64,000 nucleotides of DNA from Candidatus Woesebacteria bacterium (GCA_013374835.1 CP055307.1:542963-606962), one strand, 5' to 3'. Positions 6,976 to 21,868 are shown, counted from the stretch's first letter. Program-made: numbers and translations. The notes: generated from the letters alone by a model not told the origin.

Positions 6976-7788
6976 ATGGATGTAAGTATAGTTATTGTTA
7001 ATTATAATACCGCTGATCTGGTTTCTAATTGTGTTGATTCAGTTTATAAAAGTAAGCCGAAGGCAAAGTTTGAGGTTATTATTATTGATAACGGATCAGA
7101 TGACGCCTTAAGTCTAAAAAAAATTAAGAAATCCCATCCGGGGGTTAAAATTTTGTTTAACAAGAAAAATGAGGGATATTCTAAAGCTAATAATCAAGGT
7201 ATAAAGATGGCTTTGGGGAAGTACGTATGGCTTTTAAACTCTGATACTGTTGTTAAGAAAAATGCTCTTGACGCGCTGTTTTCTGCAGCAAAGCAAAGGA
7301 TTAACGGAGGGGTTTTTGGATCAAAACTTTATAATGCGGATGGGAGTGTTCAGGAATCTTGCATGAGGTTTCCAACGCAGTGGCGAGCTTTCAAGCAATA
7401 TTTTTTGGGTGAAAAAGGCCTGTTGGACAAATACGCACCCAAGTGTAAAGATGTTTGTGAAGTTGAAGCTCTCGTTGGCGCCTCTTTTTTGATTACTGAA
7501 GATGCTTTGAAGGGGGTCGGATTTTTAGATGAGCGTTTTTTTATGTATTATGAAGATCTAGATTATTGCAGGAGGGTAAGGACAATGGGGCTTAAAGTAT
7601 ATTATGTGCCTCATTCAGAAGTTGTTCATTTTCATGGTAAAAGTGGCGAGAGACTCGTTAATCCCGAAAATCAGTGGAGAAGGCTTATTCCGTCTGCAAA
7701 AATTTATCATGGAAGAGCGGGGTTTTATTTATTTAATTTTATAATTTGGGCGGGACAAAAATGGCAAAGTTTCAAAAATTTGTTTTAA
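6976..7788 (+). CDS. Glycosyltransferase family 2
   Basis: VSIVIVNYNTADLV, IIIDNGSDD, LLNSDTVV and EDLDYCRRVRTMG. Confidence 0.85.
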   Translation: MDVSIVIVNYNTADLVSNCVDSVYKSKPKAKFEVIIIDNGSDDALSLKKIKKSHPGVKILFNKKNEGYSKANNQGIKMALGKYVWLLNSDTVVKKNALDALFSAAKQRINGGVFGSKLYNADGSVQESCMRFPTQWRAFKQYFLGEKGLLDKYAPKCKDVCEVEALVGASFLITEDALKGVGFLDERFFMYYEDLDYCRRVRTMGLKVYYVPHSEVVHFHGKSGERLVNPENQWRRLIPSAKIYHGRAGFYLFNFIIWAGQKWQSFKNLF

Positions 7789-9188
7789 TAAAGAATTTTT
7801 TTATAAAAAATTGGCGGGAAGTTTTGTTAACTGTTTTGATAATTTTTTTGGGCAATAGGCTTCGTGAGTTTTCATATGCAAGCGTTCCATTGCCAGGAGA
7901 AACGGCCGATGAGTACAGTTTTGCATGGCTTGGGATAAGCTTGATTAAAGATAGATACCCAATTGCTTGGTCCGGACTTTCTGCATACAAAAGCCACGAT
8001 TATCAAAGAATAAACGTAGATGGTATATATGACGAAAATAAAGATCCCAATAGAGAGCCTTTTTCTATCGATAAGCCGTGGTTTGATCATCCGCCACTTT
8101 TCGGATTGATGATTGGTGGTTATGGATACTTAAAAGGAGTAAGGGATTTTAAAGACGCTTCGGTAATAATTATTAGACGTCCGATGCTTAAGATTGCGCT
8201 TTTTAGTAGCATACTTTTATATGTTTTGGCAAGAAGGCTTTATGGAAAAACGATTGCTTTTTTTTCTTTGATTTTATATTCGGTTACACCGTCTTTGGTT
8301 ATTTCTTCCCGACTTGTTTTGGCTGAAAATGCGCTTGTGCCACTTTTTTTACTAACGGCTATTTTGTTTAATGAGTATGTAAGTAATGAGAAAAGAAAAT
8401 ATCTTTTTGTGGCATATGGGGTGTGCTTTATTTCAATGTGGGTCAAGCTATCTTCGATGGCATCGATTTTAGCACTGTTTCTACTTGGATTATGGCACTC
8501 TAAACAGAAATTTGTCCACCTAAAGATTGCTGGTTTAACCTTTTTGTTATTTTTTATTAGTTATGTTTTATATGGGGCTTTGTTCGGAATTGATACTTTT
8601 TTTGCGGTATTAAAGGCTAATTCTCAAAGAATTTTTGGCGCGGGTGCTGAAATATTTTATTCGGCCTTGATGCAGCACAAAATAACAAATCTGAGGTACT
8701 TAACGGATGGATGGATTATAGTTTTTTGGATATCCTTTTTTGTAACTTGTCTTGAGATAAAAAATGGGTTTAGTAACAGATTTATTCCTTTAATTTTTGT
8801 TGTTTCGTATCTCTTTGTTTTTTTAATTTTCGGCAGCGAGTCATATGGATGGTATCGGTATCCTTTTTATCCTTTTTTAATTATTATTTTCTCCTCTTAT
8901 GTGTACAAACTTTGGAAGCGGGCGGATATTATTTCTTTTAGTGCGGTTGCGCTTATTCCGTTTGGGACCGCTTTCCACCGCTTGGTTGGAATTGAAGGGT
9001 TTGAACAGTATGTTTTTTCTTTTAGGCTTAATGTTGTATTTTTAATTTTTTTGACTTGTCTTTATTTGCTCAAAAAAAATCTTTCTGTTATTCGTGCTTA
9101 TATGCTGGCTGTTATAATCTTTTTAGTATATATTTCGATTAAGCTTGTCTATTTTTATGATCTAGGTAATTGGTATTTTGTTACATGA
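7746..9188 (+). CDS. Polytopic membrane protein, GT-C-like candidate
   Basis: 480 aa, multi-TM. An N-terminal extracytoplasmic loop has PGETADEYSFAWLGISLIKDRYP (DE motif). The start is probably the ATG at 7761. Confidence 0.45.
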   Translation: MGGTKMAKFQKFVLIKNFFIKNWREVLLTVLIIFLGNRLREFSYASVPLPGETADEYSFAWLGISLIKDRYPIAWSGLSAYKSHDYQRINVDGIYDENKDPNREPFSIDKPWFDHPPLFGLMIGGYGYLKGVRDFKDASVIIIRRPMLKIALFSSILLYVLARRLYGKTIAFFSLILYSVTPSLVISSRLVLAENALVPLFLLTAILFNEYVSNEKRKYLFVAYGVCFISMWVKLSSMASILALFLLGLWHSKQKFVHLKIAGLTFLLFFISYVLYGALFGIDTFFAVLKANSQRIFGAGAEIFYSALMQHKITNLRYLTDGWIIVFWISFFVTCLEIKNGFSNRFIPLIFVVSYLFVFLIFGSESYGWYRYPFYPFLIIIFSSYVYKLWKRADIISFSAVALIPFGTAFHRLVGIEGFEQYVFSFRLNVVFLIFLTCLYLLKKNLSVIRAYMLAVIIFLVYISIKLVYFYDLGNWYFVT

Positions 9189-10855
9189 AAAAATATATTT
9201 TGTTTTTAATTGTAGTAATTGCTTTGTTCCTTAGGTTTTGGAGAATTGGAGAGGCTCCCATATCGCTTTTTGGAGACGAGCTTGATGTGGGTTATCAAGC
9301 TTACTCAATACTCAAAACAGGCAAGGATTATTATGGCAATTTTATGCCGCTTCATTTCCATTCTTTGGCCGAGTGGAGAACCCCTGTTTATCTTTATTCT
9401 GCTGTGCCGACTGTTGCTTTTTTTGGTATAAGTCCTTTGGGAGTAAGACTTCCTGCAGCTATTTTTGGTGTTTTAGGTGTGATTGCATTTTACTATTTAG
9501 TCTATGAAATTACAAAGGATAGAAAACATGCTATTGCAGCCTCTTTTTTAATGGCTATTTCTCCTTGGCAAATTCAATATAGCAGAGCCGGTTTTGAGGT
9601 AACTCAGATGCTCTTTTTTTTACTTCTTGCAGTTTACTTTTTTTTGAAATCTTTCAAAGTACACAAAAGTTTACCTATTTCGTCTTTGTTTTTTAGCTTA
9701 ATTCCATGGGTCTACAGTACAGGCAAATTTTTTGTTCCTTTGTTTGTTTTTTTTATCGTTTTAAACTGGTTTGATGATTTTAGGAAAATTAGAAGAAAAT
9801 ATATTTATTTTTCTTTATTAATTATTTTGTTTTTTGCGATTCCCATGATATTGATTTCTGGGGGCGCATCTCAGAGATTTTCTTATATTAGCGTTTTTAC
9901 AGATCCGACTCTCGAGAGCGAGATTGGATATGACAGATCTGTTGATGCGCGATCAGGTGTGCCGCCGTTTATTTCCCGAGTGTTTCACAATAAGGTGATT
10001 TTTTGGTCCGATATGATAATTAGAAATATTTTGACCTCTTTTTCAAGCGATTTTTTGTTTGTTAATGGGGATCCGAATCTCAGGCATTCGGTCGCGGGTG
10101 TTGGGCAGTTTTACAAAGTAGAATTTTTAAGCTTGCTTTTCGGAGCAATAGCCTTTTTTGGGAGTTATAAAAATATTAAAGCAAAGAGAATGCTTGTAAT
10201 TTGGATAGGATTGTCTGTTATTACCTCCTCACTAACAAGAGACGGAGGAAACCACGCAACGCGGCTTTTTTTGATGCTGCCTCCTTTTTTGATTCTTTCT
10301 TCCTGGGGGTTTTTAACATTATTATATAAAAATAGAATTTTTTATAAGTTTTTGTTTTTAACCCTTTTTGTATTGCTTTTGACCAATTTTATTAGCTACC
10401 AGCATAACTATTGGCTTCACTATATTTACGATTCTGAGCGTTGGTGGCATGCGGGTTTAGGTGAGGCAATAAAATCGCTTAAAGGTAATGAGGCAAAATA
10501 TGAGAAAATAATTATCACCACTTATGACGAGCCTCCTTGGGTCTTTTTTGCCGGATGGTATGAATACCCGCCCGAGAAGTGGCAGAGTAATTTTCCTATT
10601 GAAAATAAAACAGTTTTACCTGGGTTTGGTGAGGTTTCTTTTATTGACAAGTTTTACTTTGGGTCTCCGGTTGATTTAGGCTTTTACGAATGGCCTCAGA
10701 TAATTGACGATAAGACACTTTATCTTGCTTCTGCCAAGGAGGTTAAAATCAATCTGATTCAAGAGCCTCAAAGAATTCCACGGGGGCTACATTTTGTTGA
10801 CGTTATAACTTTTCCTTCAGGCGAGCCTGCTTATTATTTGTTTACTGGAGAATAA
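9170..10855 (+). CDS. ArnT/PMT_2-like GT-C glycosyltransferase, paralog 1 of 6
   Basis: GDELDVGYQAYSILKTGKDYYGNFMPLHFHS matches the DE-x3-Y-x3-S-x2-L-x-(S/T)G-(D/R) loop of ArnT, followed by SPLGVRLPAAIFGV. The C-terminal soluble domain ends FPSGEPAYYLF. The likely start is the ATG at 9185, giving an ATGA overlap with the upstream gene. Confidence 0.65.
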   Translation: MVFCYMKKYILFLIVVIALFLRFWRIGEAPISLFGDELDVGYQAYSILKTGKDYYGNFMPLHFHSLAEWRTPVYLYSAVPTVAFFGISPLGVRLPAAIFGVLGVIAFYYLVYEITKDRKHAIAASFLMAISPWQIQYSRAGFEVTQMLFFLLLAVYFFLKSFKVHKSLPISSLFFSLIPWVYSTGKFFVPLFVFFIVLNWFDDFRKIRRKYIYFSLLIILFFAIPMILISGGASQRFSYISVFTDPTLESEIGYDRSVDARSGVPPFISRVFHNKVIFWSDMIIRNILTSFSSDFLFVNGDPNLRHSVAGVGQFYKVEFLSLLFGAIAFFGSYKNIKAKRMLVIWIGLSVITSSLTRDGGNHATRLFLMLPPFLILSSWGFLTLLYKNRIFYKFLFLTLFVLLLTNFISYQHNYWLHYIYDSERWWHAGLGEAIKSLKGNEAKYEKIIITTYDEPPWVFFAGWYEYPPEKWQSNFPIENKTVLPGFGEVSFIDKFYFGSPVDLGFYEWPQIIDDKTLYLASAKEVKINLIQEPQRIPRGLHFVDVITFPSGEPAYYLFTGE

Positions 10856-10856
10856 G

Positions 10857-12164
10857 ATGAAGATAATTAAGAATAATTTATTACTTTTTTTAATTTTTTT
10901 TGCTTTTGTACTTCGATTGCTTGTTGTTTTTTGGGGTTATCATGGCGATTTAAATAACAATATTTCCTGGAGTGAGACTGCAATTAGCCACGGATTAAAT
11001 GGTTTCTATGAGATTGACAGTTGGGATTATTCGGCGCCTAATCAGCCGCCTCTTTATATATTACTTTTTGTTTTTCTAAGAAAAATTTGGGAAGCGGTGG
11101 GAGATATCTCAGGCTACTTAAATCATTCTATTGGTGTTTTTCCATCTGCTTTTGTATGGTTTTGGGAGAGGCGTGGGATGATTTTATTAGTTAAACTGCC
11201 ATCCATAATTTCGGATCTTGCAATAGGATATCTAATGTATCTATTTTTAAGAAATAGAAATAAAAAGTGGGCTATAATGTCAACGGGCTTATGGCTTTTT
11301 AACCCGATTGTATGGTATAACAGTGCGATTTGGGGGCAAACTGATGCGATTGTTAATTTGATCGGATTGGCTTCTTTAATTGCACTTTTAAACAAAAAAC
11401 TAGTCCTATCTAGCGCTTTAATTGCGCTTTCAATTTTGTTTAAAGGTTCTTTACTTGTGTTTATTCCGGTTTTTTTTCTAATTGCTTTGAGGCAAAGGCA
11501 AAAGGCAAAGAACTGGGTCATTTCTCTTTGTGCGGCTTTATTGGTGGTTTTTTTGACATCGATATGGTTTCATCCGGAATATGATTTTATTGTTTGGCTG
11601 GCGAATCTTTATAAAAACAGAATCTTACCCGGAGAGATAGGCTATCTGACTGCAAATGCTTTTAATTTTTGGTGGTTAGTCGATCACGGAAAGACCTATG
11701 ATTCTAAGGTTTTTTTTGGTTTGGCAGCGAGGGTGTGGGGTTATCTTATTTCGCTGGGGTTGATATTCGGTTTGCTACCGCGTCTTAAGAAAATTGACGA
11801 GGGGAGAGTCTTTTATATGCTAGCTTTAACCTCGTTTATAACATTTTTGTTTCTAACCAGGATGCACGAGCGGTATTTATACCCTTTTTTTTTGATGGCC
11901 AGCATGCTTTTAGCTTATAAAAGACGTGTCTTGCCTGTTTATTTAACACTTTCGATAACTCATTTATTTAATTTGTATCACTTATTTTGGGTGCCAAACT
12001 TGAAAATATGGGAGAACCTTTATTTAAATCCTGGCTTTATGATTTTTTTGTCGTTTCTTCAGATTGTGCTCTTTTTTTATCTATATGTTTTGTTTTTTCA
12101 GACAACGTTTGAAAAGACCTCGAACTTTCAGTCCAATGCTGCTAGTAAAAAAACCAAGCGATGA
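10857..12164 (+). CDS. Polytopic membrane protein, possible DUF2029/GT87-like GT-C
   Basis: 435 aa, multi-TM. The N-terminal region GYHGDLNNNISWSE...PNQPPLYILLF...VKLPSIISDLAIGYLMY is loosely GT87-like. It is inserted inside the paralog array. Confidence 0.35.
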   Translation: MKIIKNNLLLFLIFFAFVLRLLVVFWGYHGDLNNNISWSETAISHGLNGFYEIDSWDYSAPNQPPLYILLFVFLRKIWEAVGDISGYLNHSIGVFPSAFVWFWERRGMILLVKLPSIISDLAIGYLMYLFLRNRNKKWAIMSTGLWLFNPIVWYNSAIWGQTDAIVNLIGLASLIALLNKKLVLSSALIALSILFKGSLLVFIPVFFLIALRQRQKAKNWVISLCAALLVVFLTSIWFHPEYDFIVWLANLYKNRILPGEIGYLTANAFNFWWLVDHGKTYDSKVFFGLAARVWGYLISLGLIFGLLPRLKKIDEGRVFYMLALTSFITFLFLTRMHERYLYPFFLMASMLLAYKRRVLPVYLTLSITHLFNLYHLFWVPNLKIWENLYLNPGFMIFLSFLQIVLFFYLYVLFFQTTFEKTSNFQSNAASKKTKR

Positions 12165-12748
12165 AATTCTTACTCACGACAATTTTTTTATTTATTCTTA
12201 CTCCTGCATTTATTTTTACTGTTAATGGAAGAGTGTCAAAGCCTGACGGATTTATCAGTGTATCTGACAGGGAAGCTTTAGAGACTATAAATTACAAAAG
12301 AGGTGTTTTGATAGAATCGGGTATCCCTTTTGTCCGGTTGTTTGAAAATAAGCTTACGTATGGGTTAAGACAAATTTTTGTGAGGATGGGAAACAGTTTT
12401 GAGGCACATTATTTGTTTTTCGGAGGTTTGGGGTTTGTGGGTTTAATGCCACTTTTTTATTTGCCGTTAATGATCACCGGTTTATTAAAGAGCACTTTAA
12501 GATTTAAAAAGATATTTGTAGCGCTTTTTTTAGCTGTTTCTGTCCCTGTGGGAGTAGTTTCTCATGAATATAATGTTTTTGTGAGGCTACCTGTTGTAAT
12601 ACTTTATTGCTTTTTGGCTACGAAAGGGGTTTTTTATCTGTTTGATAAAAAAAGAAGGGTTTTTATTTTTTTAGTGTTTTTTGGATTTTACGAATTTTTA
12701 AAATTTGTTCATGATTACATCTATGTTTATCCAACGGTTATTCGTTAA
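12161..12748 (+). CDS. Hypothetical membrane protein
   Basis: 195 aa ORF translationally coupled to its neighbours, with an N-terminal TM and C-terminal TM helices. No recognisable motif. Confidence 0.4.
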   Translation: MKFLLTTIFLFILTPAFIFTVNGRVSKPDGFISVSDREALETINYKRGVLIESGIPFVRLFENKLTYGLRQIFVRMGNSFEAHYLFFGGLGFVGLMPLFYLPLMITGLLKSTLRFKKIFVALFLAVSVPVGVVSHEYNVFVRLPVVILYCFLATKGVFYLFDKKRRVFIFLVFFGFYEFLKFVHDYIYVYPTVIR

Positions 12749-14427
12749 TGCGTAATGTATTTTTGAAAAGAATATATAAAAGTGATTTTTTTGTAGTGAG
12801 CTTAGTGTTTTTCGGAGCCTTTTTGATGAGGGTGGTTTTAATCACAAAAGTACCCGTGAGCATGAATTGGGATGAGGCAAGCTTTGGATACAACGCTTAT
12901 TCGATACTAAAGACCGGACGTGATGAGTATGGAGAGCTTTTGCCGCTTCAGTTTCGTTCAGTAGGAGACTATAAGGCGCCCCTTTTTATTTATGCACTCG
13001 TTCCTTTTGTAAAAATTTTTGGTCTTAGTGTGTGGACTGTTCGCATTTTACCGAGCTTAACAGGATCGCTTTCGGTAGTTTGTTTTTATTTTTTGGTTAA
13101 AGCTCTTCTTGATAGGAAATCTGCGATTATAGCGTCTTTGTTTTTAACCATTAGCCCTTGGCATATTCAGTTTACCAGAGGGGGGGCTGATGTCGGCTTT
13201 GCTACTTTTTTTACGCTTTTGGGAATTGTTTCGTTTGTTTATGCTCAGAAAAATAAGTTTTTTTATTATTTATCTGTTGTTTCCTTTTCGCTTTCTGTTT
13301 ATTCCTATTTTGCAGAGCGGTTGTTTGTCCCTTTTATTTTTATATTTCTTTTGTTGGTTTATAGAGAAAATTTTTTTGGTCAAAGTAAACGAACAATTTT
13401 GAATCTTACTTTTACCACCTTGCTTTTTGCTTTACCGATATTTTTACCGCTTTTTTCGTCAGGGCATATAGAGAAGATTGAGAAAACTACAATTTTCGGA
13501 TACAGCCGCCCGGTTGAATATGAAAGAAGGATGAAGGCCTCGAGCGCTTCGGATTTTAGTTACAATTTATTTCATGGGTCGGTTATCGAAAACGGATTTG
13601 GGTTTTTGGACCGCTATTTAACGCATTTTTCACCTCGTTTTCTGTTTTTTTACGGTCCTTCGTATGACCCAAGGCAATTTATTTCTTATATGGGGATGCT
13701 TTATTTATCTGATGTATTTTTTATAATTATTGCTTTTATGTTTTTAAAAAAGATGCCTAAAACAAGCAGAATGATTGTTTTAGGCTGGATGGTGCTAGCT
13801 CCTATTCCTGCCGCTATTACGCGGGATACTGTACATGCAAGGCGGGCTTTTAATTTAGTTTATCCTTTGGTTTTTTTATCTTCGTTTGGGTTTATTGAAT
13901 TTTATCGGAGAATTTTAATAAATTTTGATAAGGTTTGGAGGGTTTTTTTGGGAAGCGTTTTTTGTATTTTGTTTTTGTACCTTTTTTTAGGCTATTTGTG
14001 GGGGTATTATCTTTTTTCTCCAAGGGTTAATTACAAAGGGCCTTCTGGATGGCAGTGGGGTTACAAAGAACTTGTTGAGACGATTAGTCCGATTGCTACT
14101 AATTACGAAAAAGTGGTTGTAGATACAACATATCAAGGGCCATATGTTTTTTTCTTGTTTTTTAACAAATACTCGCCTGAAAGATATCATCCTCAAGCGC
14201 GTTTAGTGCAGGAAAGCCGAGAATTTTTAGGTGAAGGTGCGGGATTTGATAATTACGAGTTCAGGCCAATTTATTGGCCTGAAGACAGGTATTTATCAAA
14301 TACAATTTTTGCCGGACCTCCTGAGAGAGTAAGAATAAAAGATATTGATCCAGCTGATGCGAGAATTTTAAGTACAATAAATTTCCCCAACGGGGAAATT
14401 GCGTGGCTTGTGGTTGAGGTATATTAA
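12748..14427 (+). CDS. ArnT/PMT_2-like GT-C glycosyltransferase, paralog 2 of 6
   Basis: NWDEASFGYNAYSILKTGRDEYGELLPLQFRSVGDYKAPLFIY...SVWTVRILPSLTG. The C-terminus ends FPNGEIAWLVVEVY. Confidence 0.65.
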   Translation: MRNVFLKRIYKSDFFVVSLVFFGAFLMRVVLITKVPVSMNWDEASFGYNAYSILKTGRDEYGELLPLQFRSVGDYKAPLFIYALVPFVKIFGLSVWTVRILPSLTGSLSVVCFYFLVKALLDRKSAIIASLFLTISPWHIQFTRGGADVGFATFFTLLGIVSFVYAQKNKFFYYLSVVSFSLSVYSYFAERLFVPFIFIFLLLVYRENFFGQSKRTILNLTFTTLLFALPIFLPLFSSGHIEKIEKTTIFGYSRPVEYERRMKASSASDFSYNLFHGSVIENGFGFLDRYLTHFSPRFLFFYGPSYDPRQFISYMGMLYLSDVFFIIIAFMFLKKMPKTSRMIVLGWMVLAPIPAAITRDTVHARRAFNLVYPLVFLSSFGFIEFYRRILINFDKVWRVFLGSVFCILFLYLFLGYLWGYYLFSPRVNYKGPSGWQWGYKELVETISPIATNYEKVVVDTTYQGPYVFFLFFNKYSPERYHPQARLVQESREFLGEGAGFDNYEFRPIYWPEDRYLSNTIFAGPPERVRIKDIDPADARILSTINFPNGEIAWLVVEVY

Positions 14428-14447
14428 ATTGATTATAATAGTAGAAA

Positions 14448-16079
14448 GTGAAAAGAAAAATTTATCTTTTTTTAATATTTTCGGTGGCCGCTATAATTCG
14501 TATTTTATGGTTAGATAAATATCCGTCAGGCTTTACTCCTGATGAGGCCTCTTTTGGGTATGATGCTTATTCGATTTTGAAAACAGGCGCAGATCAGTGG
14601 GGCAGAAGCTTTCCTTTGTCTTTTAAGTCTTTTGGTGATTATAAAATGCCTCTTTATGGTTATTTATCGGTTCCTTTTGTTTTTATTTTCGGATTGAGCG
14701 AGTTTTCTGTAAGGCTTCCAGCCGCATTATTAGGGACTTTGAGTGTATTTTTTACATACCTACTTGTAAAGGAGTGGAGAAAAAATGAGAAGGAAGCGTT
14801 AATTTCAAGCTTTTTTTTGGCCGTGTCGCCTTGGCATATTGCGCTTTCAAGGGGTGCCTTTGAGGCTAATCTTACGAGTTTTTTTATAACCAGCGGCATA
14901 TATTTTTTTTTGAAGGGGGGACGGCGTTTTGTTTTTTTGTCTTCTTTGATCTTGGGGCTAAACTTATTTAGCTATCATTCTGCTCGTTTTGTGACGCCTT
15001 TTTTGTTTTTAATGCTTTTGTTTAAATTAAGAAATAACAGGAAAGAAAGATTTGTTTTTGTTATGTCTTTTTTGTTTTTTGCTTTTTTGACAGTGTTAAG
15101 TTATTTGGGAGGGGCGGGTTCAAGGGTCGCGACAGCAGGTATATTTTCATCCTCTTCAAATATGAGCACTGAAAGGTTTGTCGCTTTAACGAGTGGAATG
15201 CCTGAGCCTGTTGCAAGATTTTTTAATAATAAATATATATATTTCGGAAAAGTTTTTGTGGATAACTATTTATCATATTATTCTACTGAATTTTTATTTT
15301 CGAAAGGGGCGGGTGAGTTTACATACGGGATGATGCCGGGGATTGGAGTTCTTTATTATTTGGATTTTATTTTCTTGTTTTTATTTATAGCTTACTTTTT
15401 TTCGCGGTTTGATTTTATGAGAGACGGTTGGTTTGCAGCTTGGCTTTTGATTTCGCCTATTCCTGCCGCTTTATCTATCGGTCCTGGGTATGCGGCAAAT
15501 CGAGCGGCGGTAGTCTTGCCGGCATTAGTGATTGCCAGTGGATTGGGTGCGTCTTACTTGTTAAATAAATTTTTGAAAATAAAAATTTTTCATCTATTAG
15601 CTTTTATAGCTTATTTGCTGTTTTTTATATTTTTTGTGGAGAAATATTTTGTTCAAATGCCGGTTTACGGATCTCGCCACATGATTTATGGTACCAAACA
15701 GGTTTTTGATTTTTTGAGCGAGCATGAAAGTTTTTATGAAAAGATAATAGTAAGTAAGAGCGTTTCCGAGCCGCATATATTTGCTGCATTTTATTTGAAG
15801 AAAGACCCTGTTGAATACCAGCGGCAGGCTCAAAAGTGGAGATTTGAGGAAGATGGGTTAAGGTGGGTTGACCAGCTTGATTCTTATTCTTTGGAGAAAT
15901 ATGTTTTTAAGAGTTTAGAAGAGGAAGATTTTTTATATGAAAACGCGCTGATTGTGGGTACGGGTGAAGAGATACCTGATAATGTTAATTTGCTGGAGAC
16001 GATTTTTTATCCAGACGGTAGGGTCGCCTATAAAATAGTTGATACGAGTGAAAAATTATTTGCTTATGGAAAGCATTGA
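14448..16079 (+). CDS. ArnT/PMT_2-like GT-C glycosyltransferase, paralog 3 of 6
   Basis: GTG start at 14448. TPDEASFGYDAYSILKTGADQWGRSFPLSFKSFGDYKMPLYGY...FSVRLPAALLG. The C-terminus ends YPDGRVAYKIV. Confidence 0.65.
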   Translation: MKRKIYLFLIFSVAAIIRILWLDKYPSGFTPDEASFGYDAYSILKTGADQWGRSFPLSFKSFGDYKMPLYGYLSVPFVFIFGLSEFSVRLPAALLGTLSVFFTYLLVKEWRKNEKEALISSFFLAVSPWHIALSRGAFEANLTSFFITSGIYFFLKGGRRFVFLSSLILGLNLFSYHSARFVTPFLFLMLLFKLRNNRKERFVFVMSFLFFAFLTVLSYLGGAGSRVATAGIFSSSSNMSTERFVALTSGMPEPVARFFNNKYIYFGKVFVDNYLSYYSTEFLFSKGAGEFTYGMMPGIGVLYYLDFIFLFLFIAYFFSRFDFMRDGWFAAWLLISPIPAALSIGPGYAANRAAVVLPALVIASGLGASYLLNKFLKIKIFHLLAFIAYLLFFIFFVEKYFVQMPVYGSRHMIYGTKQVFDFLSEHESFYEKIIVSKSVSEPHIFAAFYLKKDPVEYQRQAQKWRFEEDGLRWVDQLDSYSLEKYVFKSLEEEDFLYENALIVGTGEEIPDNVNLLETIFYPDGRVAYKIVDTSEKLFAYGKH

Positions 16080-17769
16080 GAAACTAAATAAATATGTATT
16101 GGCGATATTGCTTGTCTTTTCTTTTTTGGTCAGAATTTATGCAATAGATAAGGTGCCGCCGTCTTTAAATTGGGATGAGGTGAGTCATGGTTACAATGCT
16201 TACTCCATATTAAAAACAGGGCGCGATGAGTGGGGAGAGCATTTCCCTTTTTTATTTAGAGCTTATGGCGACTATAAGCTTCCGCTTTATATTTATTTGT
16301 CCGTGCCTTTTATATATATTTTTGGACTTAATCTTTTTTCTGTAAGGCTCTTGTCGGCGGTTTCAGGAGTAGGTACTGTCTATTTTACTTATTTGCTCAC
16401 CGCTAATCTTTTTGAAAAACAAGAAAGGACAAGGATCATTTCTTTTATTTCGGCGTTTTTGGTTGCTTTTAGTCCTTGGACGGTGTTTATATCAAGAGCC
16501 GCTTTTGAGGCAAATTTGGCCGTTTTTTTTATTACTGCCGGCGCTTATTTTTATTTAAATGGTCTTAAAAAGGAAAATATCCGGCATTTTGTTTTTGGCA
16601 TTGTTTTTTTAGGAGCTTCAGTTTGGGCCTATAATTCGGCACGAATTTTTGTTCCTTTCTGGATTTTTTTGATAAGTACACTATTTTTTTATCGAGTTAA
16701 AAGGTTGTTTGTTAGATTTGGGTTTAAGTTTTTGGCAAGCATTTTACTGGGCTTAGTTTTTTTTGCACCAATGATATATCAGATTTTTGTTTCTCACGGC
16801 CTTGACAGGTATGGATGGGTAGGAATTATTGACAGTGGCACAATTGGAAAAATAATCGAGTTTAGAAAAAGTTCTTCCTTGGGTACATTGTTAACAAGAT
16901 TGGTTTATAACAGACCTACTTATTTTATATACACATTTGGTATTAACTGGATAAGACATTTTGATCCGAGATTTTTATTTTTAAAAGGTGGGACTCATTA
17001 TCAGTTTAGCGTTCCCGGGCATGGAATTTTATATTCAGTTGACGCATTGTTTTTTGTTTTGGGGTATTATTTTTTGTTTAGACAAAGAAAAGAAAAAAGC
17101 CTTGCTTTTGGAGTTATTTTTACCTGGAGTCTTCTTTCTCCAATTGCTTCAAGTGCAACCAGAGAAGCGCCTCACGTTCTTCGCTTTGTTACCTATTTGC
17201 CTGTTCCCATGATGGTAATTTCTTTTGGATTTGTAAATTTTGTATCAAAGTTAAAGACGGATAATAAAGTATGGTTTGGTTTGTATTTTGGAATTATTGC
17301 ATTAAGCTTTTTGAATTATTGGATTAGTTACTCTGGTAATTATAGAAAAAACTATTCATGGGCATGGCAGTATGGGTATAAAAATGTGGTTTCTTATATA
17401 AAAGAGGTATATTCCGATTATGATAAAATTATTTTTACAAAAAAGTACGGAGAGCCTCATGAATTTATTCTTTTTTATTGGCCTTGGGATCCTGAAAGAT
17501 TTCAAAAGGATGAAAATCTAAATCGGTTTTATCAGACACATTGGTTTTGGGTGGATTCTTTTGACAAATTTTATTTTGTTAATGAGTGGGACATTGTTAA
17601 TAAATATAATGACAAGCTTTTTAAACTTGAAAGTGGTGATTTGGTTGATTGTAGGGGCATAAAATGTCTTTTGGTTACTGATAGTGCCAATGTTCCTAAA
17701 AATTGGGTAAGAGTAAAGGTCTTTTTTTATCCGAGCGGAGAGAGCGTTTTTGAAATATATGAAAATTAA
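16039..17769 (+). CDS. ArnT/PMT_2-like GT-C glycosyltransferase, paralog 4 of 6
   Basis: NWDEVSHGYNAYSILKTGRDEWGEHFPFLFRAYGDYKLPLYIY...FSVRLLSAVSG. The C-terminus ends YPSGESVFEIYEN. The ORF-track start at 16039 is a TTG; the ATG at 16066 (MESIEKL) is the more likely start. Confidence 0.65.
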   Translation: MIRVKNYLLMESIEKLNKYVLAILLVFSFLVRIYAIDKVPPSLNWDEVSHGYNAYSILKTGRDEWGEHFPFLFRAYGDYKLPLYIYLSVPFIYIFGLNLFSVRLLSAVSGVGTVYFTYLLTANLFEKQERTRIISFISAFLVAFSPWTVFISRAAFEANLAVFFITAGAYFYLNGLKKENIRHFVFGIVFLGASVWAYNSARIFVPFWIFLISTLFFYRVKRLFVRFGFKFLASILLGLVFFAPMIYQIFVSHGLDRYGWVGIIDSGTIGKIIEFRKSSSLGTLLTRLVYNRPTYFIYTFGINWIRHFDPRFLFLKGGTHYQFSVPGHGILYSVDALFFVLGYYFLFRQRKEKSLAFGVIFTWSLLSPIASSATREAPHVLRFVTYLPVPMMVISFGFVNFVSKLKTDNKVWFGLYFGIIALSFLNYWISYSGNYRKNYSWAWQYGYKNVVSYIKEVYSDYDKIIFTKKYGEPHEFILFYWPWDPERFQKDENLNRFYQTHWFWVDSFDKFYFVNEWDIVNKYNDKLFKLESGDLVDCRGIKCLLVTDSANVPKNWVRVKVFFYPSGESVFEIYEN

Positions 17770-19420
17770 ATTAACTAAAACATCTCTTTTTTTAGTTTTC
17801 TTGCTTATTTTTGGGGGGTTTTTAAGGATTTATAAAATCGGATCAAACCCTCCCCATCTAACTGCTGATGAAGCGTCTCTTGGATATAATGCTTTTTCGA
17901 TATTAAAAACAGGGCGTGATGAATATGGTGAAATATTGCCGATTATTTTTAAGTCATTTGGGGACTATAAGCCCGGTCTTTATGTTTATTTGACTATTCC
18001 TTTTGTATTTATTTTTGGTATGAACGAATTTTCGGTCAGGCTTCCATCGGCTTTAACGGGTGTGCTGTCAATATTTTTGGTCTATCTTATTTTGAAGGAG
18101 TTTTTCGGCAGAGACAGAAAGGCTTTGTTTGGTGCTTTTTTGCTTACGATTAATCCTTGGCTTATTAATTTTTCAAGAGCAGCATGGGAAGTAAATGTAG
18201 CTTTAGGTTTGACTTTAATTGCTATTTACTTTTTTTTATTATCTTTTAGAAAGAATAAGTATTTAGTTTTGTCTTCTTTGTTTTTTGCCTTTAGCCTTCT
18301 TTGTTATCAGGGAGCTAAGCTTTCAAGTGGCATTGTTGTTTTGATTTTAGCTTTAGTTTATAGGAGAGAGCTTTTAAAAATTGAAAGAAAATTTTTGGCG
18401 GCGAGTATTATCTTAGGTGTAATTGTTTCTTTGCCTATAATTATAAGTTTTTTTCAAGGTAAAACCGGAAGACTGACTGTTTTTAGTGTATTTTCTTATC
18501 CGCGGCCTGATGAGTACTTGAACGAATTTTTGAGTGAGAGCGGTGTTAAAAAAGGAAGCCTGCCTTATTATCTTTATTATTCGGAAGGATATAATTTTTT
18601 AAGAGGAGTAATGGGGCGGTACTTTAATCATTTTTCTGGCAGGTTTCTTTTTTTTGATGGGGATTGGCAAAACCTTAAGCATTCGACGCCAAACGCAGGA
18701 GTAATGCTTTTTTCAGACTTGATTCTTGTTTTGGTGGGAGTTTACTTTCTTTTTAGAGAAAAAATTACTAAACCTGTTTTTTTTATACTTTTTTGGCTTC
18801 TACTTTCTCCACTTCCTTCGGCTCTTTCGCGGGATCAGGTACATGCCGTAAGGGCATTGAATATGGCTGTTCCTTTGGTCTTCGTTGCCGGATTCGGGCT
18901 TGACTGGATTTTTGAAAAAAGCCGAATAATGTTTGTTTTAGTTTCTTTAAGTATAGTTTTGAGTTTGATTTATTACCTTGATTCTTTGTTTATCCATCAG
19001 CCTGTGCATCATGCTAAGTATTGGGAATACGGGTATAGGGAAATTGTAAAAGCGGTTACTCCGGTTATGAATGATTATGAAGATATTGTTGTTCAGCAGT
19101 CTTATTCACAGCCTTATATTTATTTTCTTTTTTATTGGGCGTCGGGCTTGAAAGAGGATTTTGATCCAAGAGATTATCAGGGATTAAACCGGTCTGTTGG
19201 AAGCAATTATTTGGATGTAGGGCTTGTTGAAAAGCTTGACAAAATTATTTTTAGAGGAATTGACTGGAGTATTGATCGCGGGAAGCGTGGTACGCTTTTT
19301 GTAGGGGATAGTGTAAGAATTCCGGTTTCCGATTCTTCTGATTTAGGTCAGTTTGATATAGTAGGGAAAATTATGTATCCGGATGGAGCGCTTGCTTTTC
19401 GAGTTGTTGAGGTGAAATGA
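17750..19420 (+). CDS. ArnT/PMT_2-like GT-C glycosyltransferase, paralog 5 of 6
   Basis: LTADEASLGYNAFSILKTGRDEYGEILPIIFKSFGDYKPGLYVY...FSVRLPSALTG. The C-terminus ends YPDGALAFRVVEVK. Confidence 0.65.
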   Translation: MKYMKIKLTKTSLFLVFLLIFGGFLRIYKIGSNPPHLTADEASLGYNAFSILKTGRDEYGEILPIIFKSFGDYKPGLYVYLTIPFVFIFGMNEFSVRLPSALTGVLSIFLVYLILKEFFGRDRKALFGAFLLTINPWLINFSRAAWEVNVALGLTLIAIYFFLLSFRKNKYLVLSSLFFAFSLLCYQGAKLSSGIVVLILALVYRRELLKIERKFLAASIILGVIVSLPIIISFFQGKTGRLTVFSVFSYPRPDEYLNEFLSESGVKKGSLPYYLYYSEGYNFLRGVMGRYFNHFSGRFLFFDGDWQNLKHSTPNAGVMLFSDLILVLVGVYFLFREKITKPVFFILFWLLLSPLPSALSRDQVHAVRALNMAVPLVFVAGFGLDWIFEKSRIMFVLVSLSIVLSLIYYLDSLFIHQPVHHAKYWEYGYREIVKAVTPVMNDYEDIVVQQSYSQPYIYFLFYWASGLKEDFDPRDYQGLNRSVGSNYLDVGLVEKLDKIIFRGIDWSIDRGKRGTLFVGDSVRIPVSDSSDLGQFDIVGKIMYPDGALAFRVVEVK

Positions 19421-21015
19421 AAAAGTACTATTTATTACTAATAATTTTATTTGGTTCTTTGCTCAGACTTTGGAGAATATGGGAGTTTCCCGCTTTAAAT
19501 GCGGATGAGGCCGCTTTGGGGTATAACGCTTATTCTATTTTGGAAACCGCAAGAGACGAGCATGGAAATATTCTGCCAATTCATTTTCAGTCGTTTAATG
19601 ATTTTAAGCCCGGACTTTATGTTTATTTGACGACCCCATTTGTTTATTTATTTGGACTAAATGTTTGGGTTGTTAGAATGCCCGGGGTTTTTGCTGGTAT
19701 TGTTTCGATATACCTTGTTTATAGGCTTATAAAAGATTTGTTTAAGGATGAAAGTTTTGCTTTAGCAGCTTCATTTTTGTTGGCTTTCTCACCTTGGCAT
19801 ATCCATTTTTCAAGGGGGGCGTGGGAAGCAAATGTGGCTACGCTACTAATCGTTTTTGGAGTTTTCAGTTTTTATAAGGCTGGACAAAGAAGAATATATT
19901 ATTATTTATCGATTTTTTCTTTTGTAATGTCTTTGTATGCTTATCATGCTGCAAGAATTATTTCGCCGCTTCTTTTTTTTGGGTTAACTTATTTTAATAG
20001 AAAACAGGTTAAAGAATCTTTCAAGCATTTTTTCGCTGCCGGGTTATTTGGATTTATTGTTTTTATTCCTCTTTTGGCATCTTTATTTTCAGGCGAGGCT
20101 TTAACCTCAAGGGCTTATGGCGTTGGTTTATTTTCGGATCCGGGGCCTTTTTCGCGAATAAACGAGCAGAGAGGAGAACACGGTAATTATACCGGAGTTG
20201 TTGCTAAAGCTTTTCATAATAAGCCGGTTAATTATGGCCTTGCCTTTATTTCAAACTGGCTTGAGCATTATTGGGGTGAATTTTTGTTTTTGTCTGGTGA
20301 CGAAATTCAGAGAAATCGTGTGCCGGAAACAGGTCAGCTATATATTTTTGAATCAGTTTTTATATTGGCTTCTTTTTATTTTATATTTAAGGAAAAGAAA
20401 TTTCGGTTTTTTGGATTTTTTATTTACTGGCTTTTAATCGCTCCTATTCCCGCTGCGCTTACTTTTCAGTCACCGCACGCGCTTCGTGCTTTGAATATGG
20501 TGATACCAATAACTCTTTTTTCATCATATGGCTTAGTTAGACTTTATAAAATGTTTTCAAAGTATAGGGTGGTTTTTGTAGCACTTTTTTTATGGGGTAT
20601 TTCGAGATATTTGATTATGTATTGGATGCATATGGCAAAGGAGTATCCATTTTCATCGCAATATGGTATGGCTGAACTTGTTACTTTTTTGGACAAAGAA
20701 GCAAAAGATGTTAAGAGAATAGTTATTACCGATCGCTATGATCAGCCTTATATTCTTTTTCTATTTTATTTGAAATACCCGCCCGATAAATTTCAGGAGG
20801 AGCATGAGCTTTCGAGACGGGATAAATACGGCTTTTCCACTGTTCGGTCATTTGACAAATATATATTTATGAATATCAATTATGATATTGTTCAGCCTGC
20901 TTATCCCGGATCGCTTATAATTGGTACAGATGGGGAGATTCCTGATCATGCGAATATTGTTAAGAAGATCTATTTTCCAAGTGGAGAAGTAGCTTTTGAG
21001 ATAGTTGCAAACTAA
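19417..21015 (+). CDS. ArnT/PMT_2-like GT-C glycosyltransferase, paralog 6 of 6
   Basis: NADEAALGYNAYSILETARDEHGNILPIHFQSFNDFKPGLYVY...VWVVRMPGVFAG. The C-terminus ends FPSGEVAFEIVAN. Confidence 0.65.
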   Translation: MKKYYLLLIILFGSLLRLWRIWEFPALNADEAALGYNAYSILETARDEHGNILPIHFQSFNDFKPGLYVYLTTPFVYLFGLNVWVVRMPGVFAGIVSIYLVYRLIKDLFKDESFALAASFLLAFSPWHIHFSRGAWEANVATLLIVFGVFSFYKAGQRRIYYYLSIFSFVMSLYAYHAARIISPLLFFGLTYFNRKQVKESFKHFFAAGLFGFIVFIPLLASLFSGEALTSRAYGVGLFSDPGPFSRINEQRGEHGNYTGVVAKAFHNKPVNYGLAFISNWLEHYWGEFLFLSGDEIQRNRVPETGQLYIFESVFILASFYFIFKEKKFRFFGFFIYWLLIAPIPAALTFQSPHALRALNMVIPITLFSSYGLVRLYKMFSKYRVVFVALFLWGISRYLIMYWMHMAKEYPFSSQYGMAELVTFLDKEAKDVKRIVITDRYDQPYILFLFYLKYPPDKFQEEHELSRRDKYGFSTVRSFDKYIFMNINYDIVQPAYPGSLIIGTDGEIPDHANIVKKIYFPSGEVAFEIVAN

Positions 21016-21868
21016 TATGTGCAATTTAAGTGTGGTTTATGTTACTAGGAATGAAGAGGAAAATATTGGCGATTCTTTAGCTTCTCTATATGATATTGCG
21101 GATGAGATTATTGTTTTTGATGAGAACAGTGCAGATCGAACGCGTGAGATTGCAAAGAAATATGGTGCAAAGGTTTACAAGGTTCCTCATGAAATAAATT
21201 TTCATAAAACGAAAAGAAAAGCACTTTCCAAAGCAACTTGCAAATGGATACTTCAGCTTGATGCGGATGAAAGATTAAGCAGCGAGCTTAGAAGTGAAAT
21301 TGTTGAGGTTATAAATTTAAGCGATGCGGATATCAGAAGACGCGTTTTTCCTGAAGATAGAAAGAAACTTTTTTTAAGACATCAAAAAATTCTCGGATAT
21401 CAAAAGTCAGATGGCAGAGAGATAGCTGCCTTTTTCATACCCAGAAGAAATTATTTTTTGGGTAAGCCGCTTCGTTTTGGCGGCGCTTATCCTGATGGAG
21501 TAATCAGACTTGTCAAAAGGGGAAAGGCTATATTTCCTGCAAAACATGTACACGAACAAATTGATATAGACGGAGGTGTTTCTTGGCTTTTTAACGATTT
21601 GGAGCACTTTGATTCGCCTTCTTTAAAAAGATACTTGATGCGTCTTAATAGATATACAGATTTACACGCCGTTTCGCTTAAGAAACGTAAAGCTCCGAGA
21701 AATTTTGTTTATTTGTTTTACTACTCCTTTCTAAAAGCCTTTCTTGTTTTTCTGTCGCTTTACATAAGGCATAAAGGGTTTAAGGATGGGATTAGAGGTT
21801 TTTTGTGGTCTTTCTTTAGCGCTTCGCATTATACAATTTCATATTTTAAATACTGGAATATGAATTAG
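21005..21868 (+). CDS. Glycosyltransferase family 2. Same subfamily as the truncated CDS at 1-551.
   Basis: LSVVYVTRNEEENIGDSL...IIVFDENSADRT...ILQLDADERL (DxD). The likely start is the ATG at 21017. Confidence 0.75.
   Translation: MQTNMCNLSVVYVTRNEEENIGDSLASLYDIADEIIVFDENSADRTREIAKKYGAKVYKVPHEINFHKTKRKALSKATCKWILQLDADERLSSELRSEIVEVINLSDADIRRRVFPEDRKKLFLRHQKILGYQKSDGREIAAFFIPRRNYFLGKPLRFGGAYPDGVIRLVKRGKAIFPAKHVHEQIDIDGGVSWLFNDLEHFDSPSLKRYLMRLNRYTDLHAVSLKKRKAPRNFVYLFYYSFLKAFLVFLSLYIRHKGFKDGIRGFLWSFFSASHYTISYFKYWNMN

Follow-up and report, generated by a model that had tools for sequence, protein, structure and literature searches.

The GT-C glycosyltransferases described to date provide several systems with which the present locus can be compared. 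In mycobacteria, arabinan and mannan are assembled outside the membrane by the Emb, Aft and Mpt enzymes. These are several GT-C paralogs, partly encoded in tandem (embCAB), each of which performs a distinct step on the envelope glycan using polyprenyl-phosphate sugars, and their extracytoplasmic C-terminal domains bind the acceptor. The ALG3/9/12 and ALG6/8/10 enzymes of the ER lumen belong to a pathway with a lipid-linked oligosaccharide and an oligosaccharyltransferase step. ArnT (GT83; PDB 5ezm and 5f15) is the lipid A 4-amino-4-deoxy-L-arabinose transferase, and works in a pathway with ArnA, ArnB, ArnD and ArnE/F, while the protein O-mannosyltransferases (GT39), which transfer mannose to Ser/Thr of proteins and in eukaryotes carry a MIR domain, include Pmt1/2/4 and the mycobacterial PMT. 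In the three-component systems (GtrA/GtrB/GtrC; CsbB/GtcA/YfhO; GT136) a GtrB-type polyprenyl-phosphate sugar synthase is coupled to a GT-C that modifies the finished polymer outside the membrane, and each modification usually has a single GT-C, with a small flippase of the GtrA or MATE type encoded alongside (PMC11127046, PMC8035078).

We have analyzed a stretch of 64 kb (the window) from a Candidatus Woesebacteria bacterium that contains a tandem array of GT-C genes. All six ORFs of the family are found where the original prediction placed them, at 9170-21015 on the + strand, encoding proteins of 532-576 aa (Table 1). Together they occupy about 10 kb, ~1% of the 0.9-Mb contig that carries an identical P5. 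For three of them the true start is likely to lie inside the tabulated ORF: at 9185 for P1, in an ATGA overlap with the stop codon of the gene at 7746-9188, and, from gene calls on the identical contig, at 16066 for P4 (567 aa) and at 17759 for P5 (553 aa). Start and stop codons overlap elsewhere too, with ATGA at 19417-19420 as well as at 9185-9188. The gaps or overlaps of 1-20 nt between the genes suggest that the array is co-transcribed; scans for promoters and terminators gave no excess over shuffled sequence.

Table 1. Genes of the array and selected genes of the surrounding glycan locus, in window coordinates.
Feature	Position	Strand	Length (aa)	Description
YfhO-family GT-C	1508-3880	+	790	Pfam YfhO 78.8 bits
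PMT480	7746-9188	+	480	PMT_2-type GT-C upstream of P1; Pfam PMT_2 44.4 bits
P1	9170-10855	+	561	ORF, GT-C paralog; Pfam PMT_2 and PMT
G435	10857-12164	+	435	ALG6/ALG3/GPI-mannosyltransferase-like GT-C, predicted class B fold, between P1 and P3
f195	12161-12748	+	195	4 hydrophobic segments; stand-alone second membrane half of family
P2	12748-14427	+	559	GT-C paralog; Pfam PMT_2 42.9 bits
P3	14448-16079	+	543	GT-C paralog; Pfam PMT_2 and PMT
P4	16039-17769	+	576	ORF, GT-C paralog; Pfam PMT and PMT_2
P5	17750-19420	+	556	ORF, GT-C paralog; protein used for AlphaFold model
P6	19417-21015	+	532	GT-C paralog; Pfam PMT_2 and PMT
GT2_287	21005-21868	+		Pfam Glycos_transf_2; one C-terminal hydrophobic segment
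Wzx-type (Polysacc_synt) flippase	24902-26155	+		Pfam Polysacc_synt_3 and Polysacc_synt
ArnC/GtrB-like polyprenyl-phosphate glycosyltransferase	32706-33644	-		phmmer against PDB
GtrB-like polyprenyl-phosphate glycosyltransferase	40441-41364	-		phmmer against PDB

All six paralogs pass the Pfam PMT_2 profile (PF13231), with 32.4-54.1 bits against a cut-off of 26.1. Five of the six, all except P2, also pass Pfam PMT (PF02366; 28.7-36.6 bits, cut-off 22.7), and since the PMT and PMT_2 models overlap this match does not separate the families. The AlphaFold model of P5 (pLDDT 90) has a GT-C fold of class A. Its top Foldseek match is ArnT (E = 4e-8), also the sole significant PDB sequence match, and EmbC, AftA, AftB and AftD are significant structural matches. 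ALG12, ArnT, AglB and Pmt4 match the model about equally, and therefore the label 'ArnT-like' is too narrow. The NCBIfam ArnT equivalog (PRK13279) gives 16.1 bits against a cut-off of 567, with P5 alone scoring, and an hhalign comparison with the E. coli protein reaches a probability of 15%. Nor do the paralogs reach NCBIfam Agl23 (TIGR03663; best score 55.6 against 126) or the LA_3751/LA_3752 family (NF047440; best score 25.4 against 200). No MIR domain was found in the six by Pfam search. Searches with the full-length structure gave no convincing match for the C-terminal domain, and in the alignments with Pmt structures, covering 336-343 of 556 residues, this alpha/beta domain lies outside the aligned part.

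The first-loop motif reads DELDVGYQAYSIL in P1, with the variants GYDAYSIL in P3 and GYNAFSIL in P5. The VR motif is PLGVRLP, WTVRILP, FSVRLP, FSVRLL, FSVRLP and WVVRMP across the six, and the C-terminal motif is (F/Y)P(S/N/D)G(E/R/A). The motifs quoted originally are present, in patterns that admit a few extra substitutions. D36, E37, D53, R93 and R139 (P1 numbering) are invariant in 6/6 paralogs, and, in P5 numbering, D40, E41, D57, R97, R143, E147 and R368 persist through every clade in almost all of 344 relatives; at the D-E pair the exceptions are three P1-clade sequences with a gap in the alignment and a single P6-clade sequence with Q. In the P1 clade R stands in for K74, and the P6 clade has a clade-specific F/Q at R361/D362. 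The predicted match to the catalytic DE loop of ArnT is borne out by alignment with the E. coli protein (K-12 genome), where PDETRYAEISREMLASGDW..FEKP..FGANNFGVRAG corresponds to ADEASLGYNAFSILKTGRDEYG..DYKPG..FGMNEFSVRLP in P5. The order of elements, DE...(S/T)G.D...(E/Y)KP...FG.N.F.VR, is identical, and the array loop is longer by 4 residues. Where the alignment places the 'EKP' motif of ArnT the array family has K or R; in ArnT this residue binds the carrier phosphate. ArnT resembles the paralogs further in its length (550 aa), its class A fold and its soluble C-terminal domain past the last helix.

In all six proteins K and R number 16-21 in the 48-75 residues of the proposed cytoplasmic loops, and 3-5 in the 34-35 residues of the short outside loops; the first loop is placed outside because of this positive-inside count. 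The proteins are predicted to cross the membrane with about 11 helices, beginning in the cytoplasm and ending outside. Facing outward, by prediction, are the first loop with its catalytic residues (DE...D...K/R...R), the long loop EL4 and the ~130-aa alpha/beta C-terminal domain. Mean identity among the six is 38% in the N-terminal module, 25% in the second membrane half and 28% in the C-terminal domain, and within orthogroups the C-terminal domain is 38% identical and the membrane core 39%. With these values the C-terminal domain does not stand out as the fastest-evolving part, being no more divergent than the second membrane half, and the earlier statement that it is far more divergent than the membrane cores fails as worded. 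The within/between-orthogroup identity ratio is the only informative measure for specificity regions; it is highest for EL4 (1.59) and the C-terminal domain (1.53), and on this sequence comparison the paralog-specific signal sits in these two regions. Clade-specific fixed positions were rejected as specificity determinants, with just 0-2% of columns per region meeting a strict criterion.

How old is the array? The paralogs are 28-35.5% identical in protein sequence (all-against-all BLASTP, full-length matches, E = 1e-56 to 1e-101), well past what chance would give, and 46-52%, about 48%, in codon-aligned nucleotide sequence. In 79 related loci P1, P3, P4, P5 and P6 are separate orthogroups forming exclusive clades, which by neighbor joining (NJ) hold 77 sequences from 68 loci for P1, 38 from 38 for P3, 76 from 65 for P4 and 38 from 38 for P6. 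There is exactly one copy per locus of P3, P5 and P6, and mostly one of P1 and P4. Each paralog is nearer to its own orthologs (40-57% identity) than to its neighbors in the array (about 30%). The order P1-P3-P4-P5-P6 holds in 52/52 testable loci (those with at least three assigned members) across Microgenomates, and the ordered set spans the candidate phyla Woese-, Davies-, Shapiro-, Collier- and Amesbacteria. The member set does vary, with some loci lacking P3 or P5 to give the patterns P1-P4-P5-P6 and P1-P4-P6. P2 has one clear ortholog among the 79 loci (L004, 62%) and branches as the sister of the P5 orthogroup; it is an additional copy confined to its lineage. The five paralogs are thus an ancient, ordered set across Microgenomates, and the orthogroups and collinearity argue for the old, maintained expansion of the original prediction more strongly than the modest nucleotide identity that it had noted. 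We found no prior description of the array in the full-text literature, the coverage of which was incomplete.

The two membrane genes that interrupt the array had been considered unrelated to it, and this does not hold for either. The AF2 model of G435 (pLDDT 91.4) has yeast ALG6 as its best Foldseek match (6snh; E = 3e-7, TMq 0.72), with further matches to ALG3 (TMq 0.61) and GPI-MT-I (TMq 0.59), and it thus has the modeled fold of an ALG6-like GT-C of class B. There is no Pfam match, Alg6_Alg8 at E = 2.5 not being significant. Some of the 697 homologs are labelled 'Gpi18-like mannosyltransferase' by JGI, and the gene occupies the same place between P1 and P3 in many related loci. The protein f195 matches positions 215-420 only of the six-paralog profile, including the FLF-G motif (hmmsearch, E = 1e-6), and is 33% identical to residues 218-300 of P1 (BLASTP, E = 2e-5). 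It has neither the catalytic N-module nor the C-terminal domain, and its ortholog in L004 (47% identity) likewise lies directly upstream of the P2 ortholog. Upstream of the array PMT480 overlaps P1 by 4 nt, and its relatives adjoin the array in L008, L011, L019, L033, L036, L039, L056 and others. PMT480 and the genes at 30998-32704, 62206-63627 and part of 48922-52296 (- strand) are the other sequences in the window that pass Pfam PMT_2.

The glycan locus fills all 64 kb of the window, and conservation of the context of the array reaches from the GT4 at 532 as far as the GT2 at 26142. Its content includes two Wzx-type flippases, YfhO, about 12 GT2, GT4s, methyltransferases and a carbamoyltransferase. 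The YfhO gene is kept upstream of P1 in many loci, and a counterpart of the tabulated flippase lies downstream of the array in L036, L044, L061 and L073. GT2_287 comes after P6 in most related loci with sequence downstream of P6, within the syntenic run P6-GT2_287-GT4_371-M382; its PDB and NCBIfam matches are to generic GT2 only, such as GmaR and SunS, and do not single it out as a third donor synthase. Two other GT2 enzymes are candidate makers of the lipid-linked monosaccharide donor, as judged by phmmer against the PDB. That at 32706-33644 matches ArnC (E = 8e-46) and GtrB sll0501 (E = 7e-31) over nearly its full length, and that at 40441-41364 matches GtrB sll0501 over residues 2-305 (E = 6.5e-75) and ArnC (E = 2e-44). 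The searches of the 64-kb window recognised neither a priming phosphoglycosyltransferase nor an LCP ligase nor a small flippase of the GtrA/ArnE type, and no candidate gene for an acceptor protein was found there. Six Pfam-negative polytopic proteins (3881-5425, 23757-24905, 36614-39781, 44117-45676, 52957-55434 and 59047-60354) gave nothing above cut-off (Pfam E<=5, NCBIfam E<=0.1).

Like the three-component systems, the locus has GtrB/ArnC homologs and YfhO proteins, but instead of a GtrA, ArnE/F or MATE-type flippase, none of which is recognised in the window, there are two of the Wzx type, and the GT-C genes exceed the recognised donor synthases in number. The mycobacterial sets share with the array the multiplicity of GT-C paralogs, but Emb and AftD are twice as long, with lectin or CBM domains, and orthology with the array is undetectable at the sequence level; the array, with its five or six members, is confined to Microgenomates. 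The ALG enzymes belong to eukaryotes, where their genes are scattered through the genome, and they have no soluble domain at the C-terminus; the array shows no sign of a lipid-linked oligosaccharide or of an oligosaccharyltransferase step.

On balance we think it somewhat probable that the six are active, non-redundant class A GT-C enzymes that act outside the membrane to build, or to decorate, a single conserved glycoconjugate of the cell surface. What we observed directly is the fold, together with the motifs, the topology bias, the orthology, the collinearity and the content of the locus; the donor type, the side of the membrane on which the reaction occurs, a glycan rather than a protein as acceptor, and one step per paralog are inferred. 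As proposed originally, the acceptor may be a glycoprotein or wall polymer rather than lipid A. In all known GT-C enzymes the donor is a single sugar on a polyprenyl-phosphate carrier, and the same would be expected of each paralog, with the two GtrB/ArnC-like enzymes of the window as candidate suppliers. A lipid-linked or wall-linked glycan would first be made in the cytoplasm and then flipped; outside the cytoplasmic membrane the sugar would be passed on, each paralog adding one particular residue or linkage to the flipped glycan, with EL4 and the C-terminal domain setting the choice of acceptor. There is precedent for a GT-C with a C-terminal acceptor-binding domain acting on a polysaccharide after polymerisation (PMC11127046). 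The whole would be an extracytoplasmic line of assembly or decoration, comparable to mycobacterial Emb/Aft/Mpt or the ER-lumenal ALG3/9/12/6/8/10 steps. The fixity of gene order is by itself no proof of sequential action.

Other readings of the array are less well placed. That it is a recent, fast-evolving or artefactual duplication, arising from assembly collapse or expansion or as an antigenic-variation cassette, is suggested by nothing more than the tandem arrangement; genes with 46-52% nucleotide identity are too divergent for a collapsed or duplicated assembly, and the orthogroups, the collinearity and the recurrence of the same ordered set in 79 independent assemblies, which represent several candidate phyla, leave it practically inconceivable. 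It is unlikely, too, that the six glycosylate proteins at O-linked sites in the manner of bacterial PMT, each with its own set of secreted or surface proteins (pilins, sortase substrates, S-layer proteins) and with polyprenyl-phosphate mannose or another hexose as donor. The Pfam PMT scores of five paralogs and the source name of homologs, 'glycosyltransferase family 39', agree with such a role, but the paralogs have no MIR domain of the kind present in eukaryotic GT39 members, and the array always lies within a locus of polysaccharide type, in the company of Wzx flippases and many glycosyltransferases of the cytoplasm, whereas an actinobacterial PMT needs only a polyprenol-phosphate-mannose synthase. 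Moreover ALG12 and ArnT, whose acceptors are a lipid-linked glycan or a lipid, equal or exceed Pmt in score, and no candidate gene for an acceptor protein was found in the window. A role as ArnT-like modifiers, adding charged or neutral sugars to a membrane glycolipid or lipoteichoic-acid-like anchor and so tuning surface charge and resistance to antimicrobial peptides, seems very doubtful. The structural and sequence searches with ArnT at their head, the loop-1 motif common to E. coli ArnT and the ArnC-like GT2 at 32706-33644 all point toward it. Yet the equivalog score falls far below its cut-off, the ArnC-like GT2 is the sole part of the pathway in the window, with ArnA, ArnB and ArnD missing from the Pfam matches, the lineage is thought to lack lipid A, and six conserved, differentiated paralogs exceed the need of a single lipid modification.

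Two further readings concern how the enzymes might work together. The paralogs could be subunits of one hetero-oligomeric membrane machine, as are EmbA-EmbB (7bvc/7bvf) and Pmt1-Pmt2 (6p25) among solved GT-C heterodimers, with gene order reflecting co-translational assembly. The copy numbers of the five orthogroups, the strict collinearity and the ATGA overlaps are consistent with this, but loci missing P3 or P5 exist, and so the full set is not obligatory; we hold the idea doubtful, though by no means far-fetched. Such a machine would be compatible with either acceptor model. The array might also be the bacterial counterpart of the ER-lumenal N-glycan precursor pathway, in which a Wzx-flipped lipid-linked oligosaccharide would be extended stepwise in the outer leaflet by a fixed GT-C series and transferred en bloc. 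The series would comprise the five class-A orthogroups and the ALG6-like class-B enzyme, possibly as one complex, and a YfhO- or PMT_2-type GT-C of the locus would move the product to protein or wall. We consider this quite improbable.

In CPR bacteria, with their genomes of roughly 1 Mb, most pathways of biosynthesis have been lost. Despite this reduction the lineage keeps at least 12 GT-C-type genes and a glycan locus that fills the window. The retention of five differentiated paralogs in the same order across candidate phyla implies that each does what the others cannot, and that the product matters to the lifestyle of these organisms; it may plausibly have a role in the surface by which cells attach to a host, or in protection. 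The array provides a testable handle on the envelope chemistry of Microgenomates, and a natural set of GT-C enzymes for the study of acceptor specificity, the determinants of which may lie in EL4 and the C-terminal domain. If the pathway did prove to resemble that of N-glycans, it would yield an envelope glycoconjugate that defines the lineage, in a major superphylum of uncultured bacteria.

The original prediction of a tandem array of six related GT-C proteins (P1 to P6, numbered in gene order) holds in its coordinates, and all-against-all BLASTP matches every pair over the full length, with 28-35.5% identity and E from 1e-56 to 1e-101. Identity at the DNA level (codon-aligned) is 46-52%, as modest as was first supposed, and copies this divergent rule out an assembly artefact as their source. 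The array genes are spaced by gaps of 1-20 nt or by short overlaps. P1 probably starts at the ATG at 9185, forming an ATGA overlap with the stop of the upstream gene PMT480, and the gene calls of a contig carrying an identical P5 place the starts of P4 and P5 at 16066 and 17759. There are 41 invariant columns among the six, including D36, E37, D53, R93 and R139 (P1 numbering). The motifs first quoted for the family are all present, albeit with a few more substitutions than were written.

Features of the array and its surroundings (window positions)
Feature	Position	Strand	Description
P1	9170-10855	+	ORF, 561 aa
P2	12748-14427	+	ORF, 559 aa
P3	14448-16079	+	ORF, 543 aa
P4	16039-17769	+	ORF, 576 aa
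P5	17750-19420	+	ORF, 556 aa
P6	19417-21015	+	ORF, 532 aa
G435	10857-12164	+	435 aa, ALG6-like GT-C
f195	12161-12748	+	195 aa, stand-alone, matches only second membrane half of family
PMT480	7746-9188	+	further PMT_2 gene
PMT_2 gene	30998-32704		passes Pfam PMT_2
PMT_2 gene	62206-63627		passes Pfam PMT_2
YfhO	1508-3880	+	YfhO-family GT-C
1124-aa protein	48922-52296	-	16 hydrophobic segments; YfhO C-terminal match (534-613), passes Pfam PMT_2 in part (732-859)
806-aa protein	26878-29298	+	polytopic, then F5/8 type C domain
100-aa ORF	249-551	+	no family match
GT2_287	21005-21868		GT2
GtrB-like GT2	40441-41364	-	full-length homology, GtrB sll0501 E 6.5e-75
ArnC-like GT2	32706-33644	-	full-length homology, ArnC E 8e-46
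Carbamoyltransferase	46077-47780
Polytopic protein	3881-5425
Polytopic protein	23757-24905		weak match, 'cell surface glycopolymer formation' family
Polytopic protein	36614-39781
Polytopic protein	44117-45676
Polytopic protein	52957-55434
Polytopic protein	59047-60354		sub-threshold PMT_2 and GT87 matches

The predicted family membership is borne out by the Pfam PMT_2 profile, which all six pass (32-54 bits against a cut-off of 26.1); five also pass Pfam PMT. All curated NCBIfam models fall far short of their cut-offs, with 56 bits against 126 for Agl23, 25 against 200 for the LA_3751/2 family and, in P5 only, 16 against 567 for the ArnT equivalog. Searched against PDB sequences, a profile of the six finds Cupriavidus ArnT as its sole significant match (E 8e-4, residues 60-230). 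Loop 1 of E. coli ArnT (K-12 genome) reads PDETRYAEISREMLASGDW...FEKP...FGANNFGVRAG and that of P5 ADEASLGYNAFSILKTGRDEYG...DYKPG...FGMNEFSVRLP. The elements occur in identical order, the K/R before P of the array family aligning with the ArnT 'EKP' motif, although the family loop is 4 residues longer; thus the proposed match to the catalytic loop of ArnT stands. Individually these genes are not new, being already labelled ArnT/GT39-like by standard annotation pipelines.

Almost without exception, and whichever clade they belong to, 344 family members from 79 related loci and the window retain D40, E41, D57, R97, R143, E147 and R368 (P5 numbering), so that none of the paralogs looks like a dead enzyme. 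On the helices of the P5 AlphaFold model (pLDDT 90), with an 11-helix N-in/C-out scheme, all six paralogs carry 16-21 Lys+Arg in 48-75 residues of cytoplasmic loop and 3-5 in 34-35 residues of short outside loop, and by the positive-inside rule the DE loop (EL1), the long loop EL4 (~236-322) and the C-terminal domain (~426-556) would lie outside the membrane.

The C-terminal domains had been thought much more divergent than the membrane cores. This is not so: the six share on average 38% identity over the N-terminal module, rising to 56% in its DE loop, and 28% over the C-terminal domain, against 25% over the second membrane half, so the C-terminal domain is not the most divergent part. Comparison within and between orthogroups gives 65 and 50% for EL1 (ratio 1.31), 39 and 32% for TM2-7 (1.21), 39.5 and 24.9% for EL4 (1.59) and 38.4 and 25.1% for the C-terminal domain (1.53). 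Thus EL4 and the C-terminal domain are constrained like the membrane core inside orthogroups, and are the most differentiated between paralogs. Such a pattern is expected if paralog-specific (acceptor) functions reside there, with shared donor chemistry in EL1.

How old is the array? Homologs of P5 number thousands, all from Patescibacteria wherever the source is named and often Woesebacteria, under the names 'ArnT family glycosyltransferase', 'glycosyltransferase family 39 protein' and 'phospholipid carrier-dependent glycosyltransferase'; one, on a 901,682-bp contig, aligns with 99% of the query at 100% identity. The six-paralog profile recovers 6,152 clusters (50% identity) at E <=1e-30 among 1.84 billion representatives. 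A scan of one genome per GTDB species gave at least 595 matches, from which 79 loci were kept, belonging to Woese-, Davies-, Shapiro-, Collier-, Ames- and Gottesmanbacteria and to MAGs with evidently wrong labels. Nearly all hold 3-8 family members in tandem. Best-hit assignment and a neighbour-joining tree of the 344 sequences define five exclusive clades: P1 (77 sequences from 68 loci), P3 (38 from 38), P4 (76 from 65), P5 (36 from 36) and P6 (38 from 38). P2, with a single ortholog (in L004), branches as sister to the P5 clade. All 52 loci in which three or more members were assigned show the strand order P1, P3, P4, P5, P6. The duplications are therefore older than the split of these candidate phyla, identity and order having been kept since, in agreement with the old, maintained expansion first proposed. 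Array size varies around this conserved core among related loci: there are extra tandem copies of P1 (L017, L025, L030, L032, L064, L071) and P4 (L047, L054, L061, L066 and others), and P3 or P5 is absent in other lineages. Many array-bearing GTDB records (L001, L005, L008, L012, L036 and L037 among them) are titled 'uncultured Gammaproteobacteria/Pseudomonadales bacterium', 'Clostridia bacterium' or 'Spirochaetia bacterium'; these titles are probably wrong, the locus content being of Woese-, Davies- or Shapirobacteria type.

Neither gene interrupting the array is unrelated to it in the way originally described. G435 has no Pfam or NCBIfam match and 697 homologs in Patescibacteria, some named 'Gpi18-like mannosyltransferase' by JGI. 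Its model (pLDDT 91.4) is matched best by yeast ALG6 (E 3e-7, TMq 0.72), followed by ALG3 and GPI mannosyltransferase I, which makes it a class-B GT-C on modelled structure; many of the related loci have it at this place, P1 on one side and P3 on the other. The product of f195 aligns to family profile positions 215-420, including the FLF-G motif (E 1e-6), and to P1 (BLASTP E 2e-5). Its counterpart in L004 (12944-13534, 47% identity) again lies directly upstream of the P2 ortholog. f195 may be either a truncated remnant or an accessory subunit.

Mapping window proteins onto the loci gives a conserved order of (100-aa ORF)-GT4-YfhO-514-aa membrane protein-methyltransferase-GT2-GT2-(PMT480) upstream, P1-(G435)-(f195, P2)-P3-P4-P5-P6 in the array and GT2_287-(SDR)-GT4-382-aa membrane protein-(Wzx)-GT2 downstream. 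Glycan machinery takes up the entire 64 kb and lies almost wholly on the + strand, with at least 12 GT-C-type genes, ~12 GT2, 5 GT4, 7 SAM methyltransferases, 2 Wzx-type flippases and an SDR; it makes up ~7% of a ~0.9-Mb genome if the contig with the identical P5 is the source. The GtrB-like and ArnC-like GT2s are the expected makers of lipid-linked monosaccharide donors for the GT-C enzymes. The window shows no recognisable priming phosphoglycosyltransferase, LCP ligase or small flippase of the GtrA type. GC skew is positive in each 2-kb bin and rises monotonically when cumulated, consistent with a window on one replichore whose genes are co-oriented with replication.

Several neighbours deserve comment. 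The 1124-aa protein has the look of two fused GT-C modules, and the 806-aa protein, in which seven N-terminal segments precede a discoidin (sugar-binding) domain, is reminiscent of GT-C enzymes with carbohydrate-binding modules. Few genes in the cluster are better conserved than the 100-aa ORF (39-74% identity across loci, mostly 55-74%), which resembles the C-terminal part of GT2_287 (23% identity, E 1e-4). Six polytopic proteins (7-11 hydrophobic segments, 382-1055 aa) have no family match above threshold and are candidates for additional GT-C enzymes, for polymerases or for ligases.

With fold, motifs, charge bias, orthology, collinearity and locus content established here, function may be approached by analogy. 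GT-C enzymes take sugar from a polyprenyl-phosphate carrier on the membrane's outer face (e.g. PMC11127046, PMC8035078), and each paralog would likewise transfer sugar from such a carrier to an acceptor there. We somewhat favour a reading in which the paralogs would act as a fixed extracytoplasmic series, extending or decorating a single conserved surface glycoconjugate, because they have become differentiated, occur mostly once per locus, and are set inside a Wzx-type polysaccharide locus with an ALG6-like GT-C. The mycobacterial Emb/Aft/Mpt enzymes work as such a series, as do the lumenal ALG enzymes. In the main rival, which we think rather unlikely, the paralogs are protein O-glycosyltransferases, each with a different protein target. 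Assembly into a hetero-oligomeric machine is a tentative possibility compatible with either the glycoconjugate series or the O-glycosyltransferases. ArnT-like lipid modification ranks lower and seems improbable.

We found no description in the searchable literature of a GT-C array of this kind, ancient and collinear with five orthogroups (six copies here), and the ALG6-like GT-C within it and the conservation of the locus across Microgenomates appear likewise undescribed. Of the 35 Microgenomates-enriched families, Méheust et al. 2019 (PMC6744442) say just that they are mainly hypothetical proteins and that 14 are predicted to be membrane-localised. The organisation of the array is striking and offers a lead on the envelope chemistry of CPR bacteria that can be tested.
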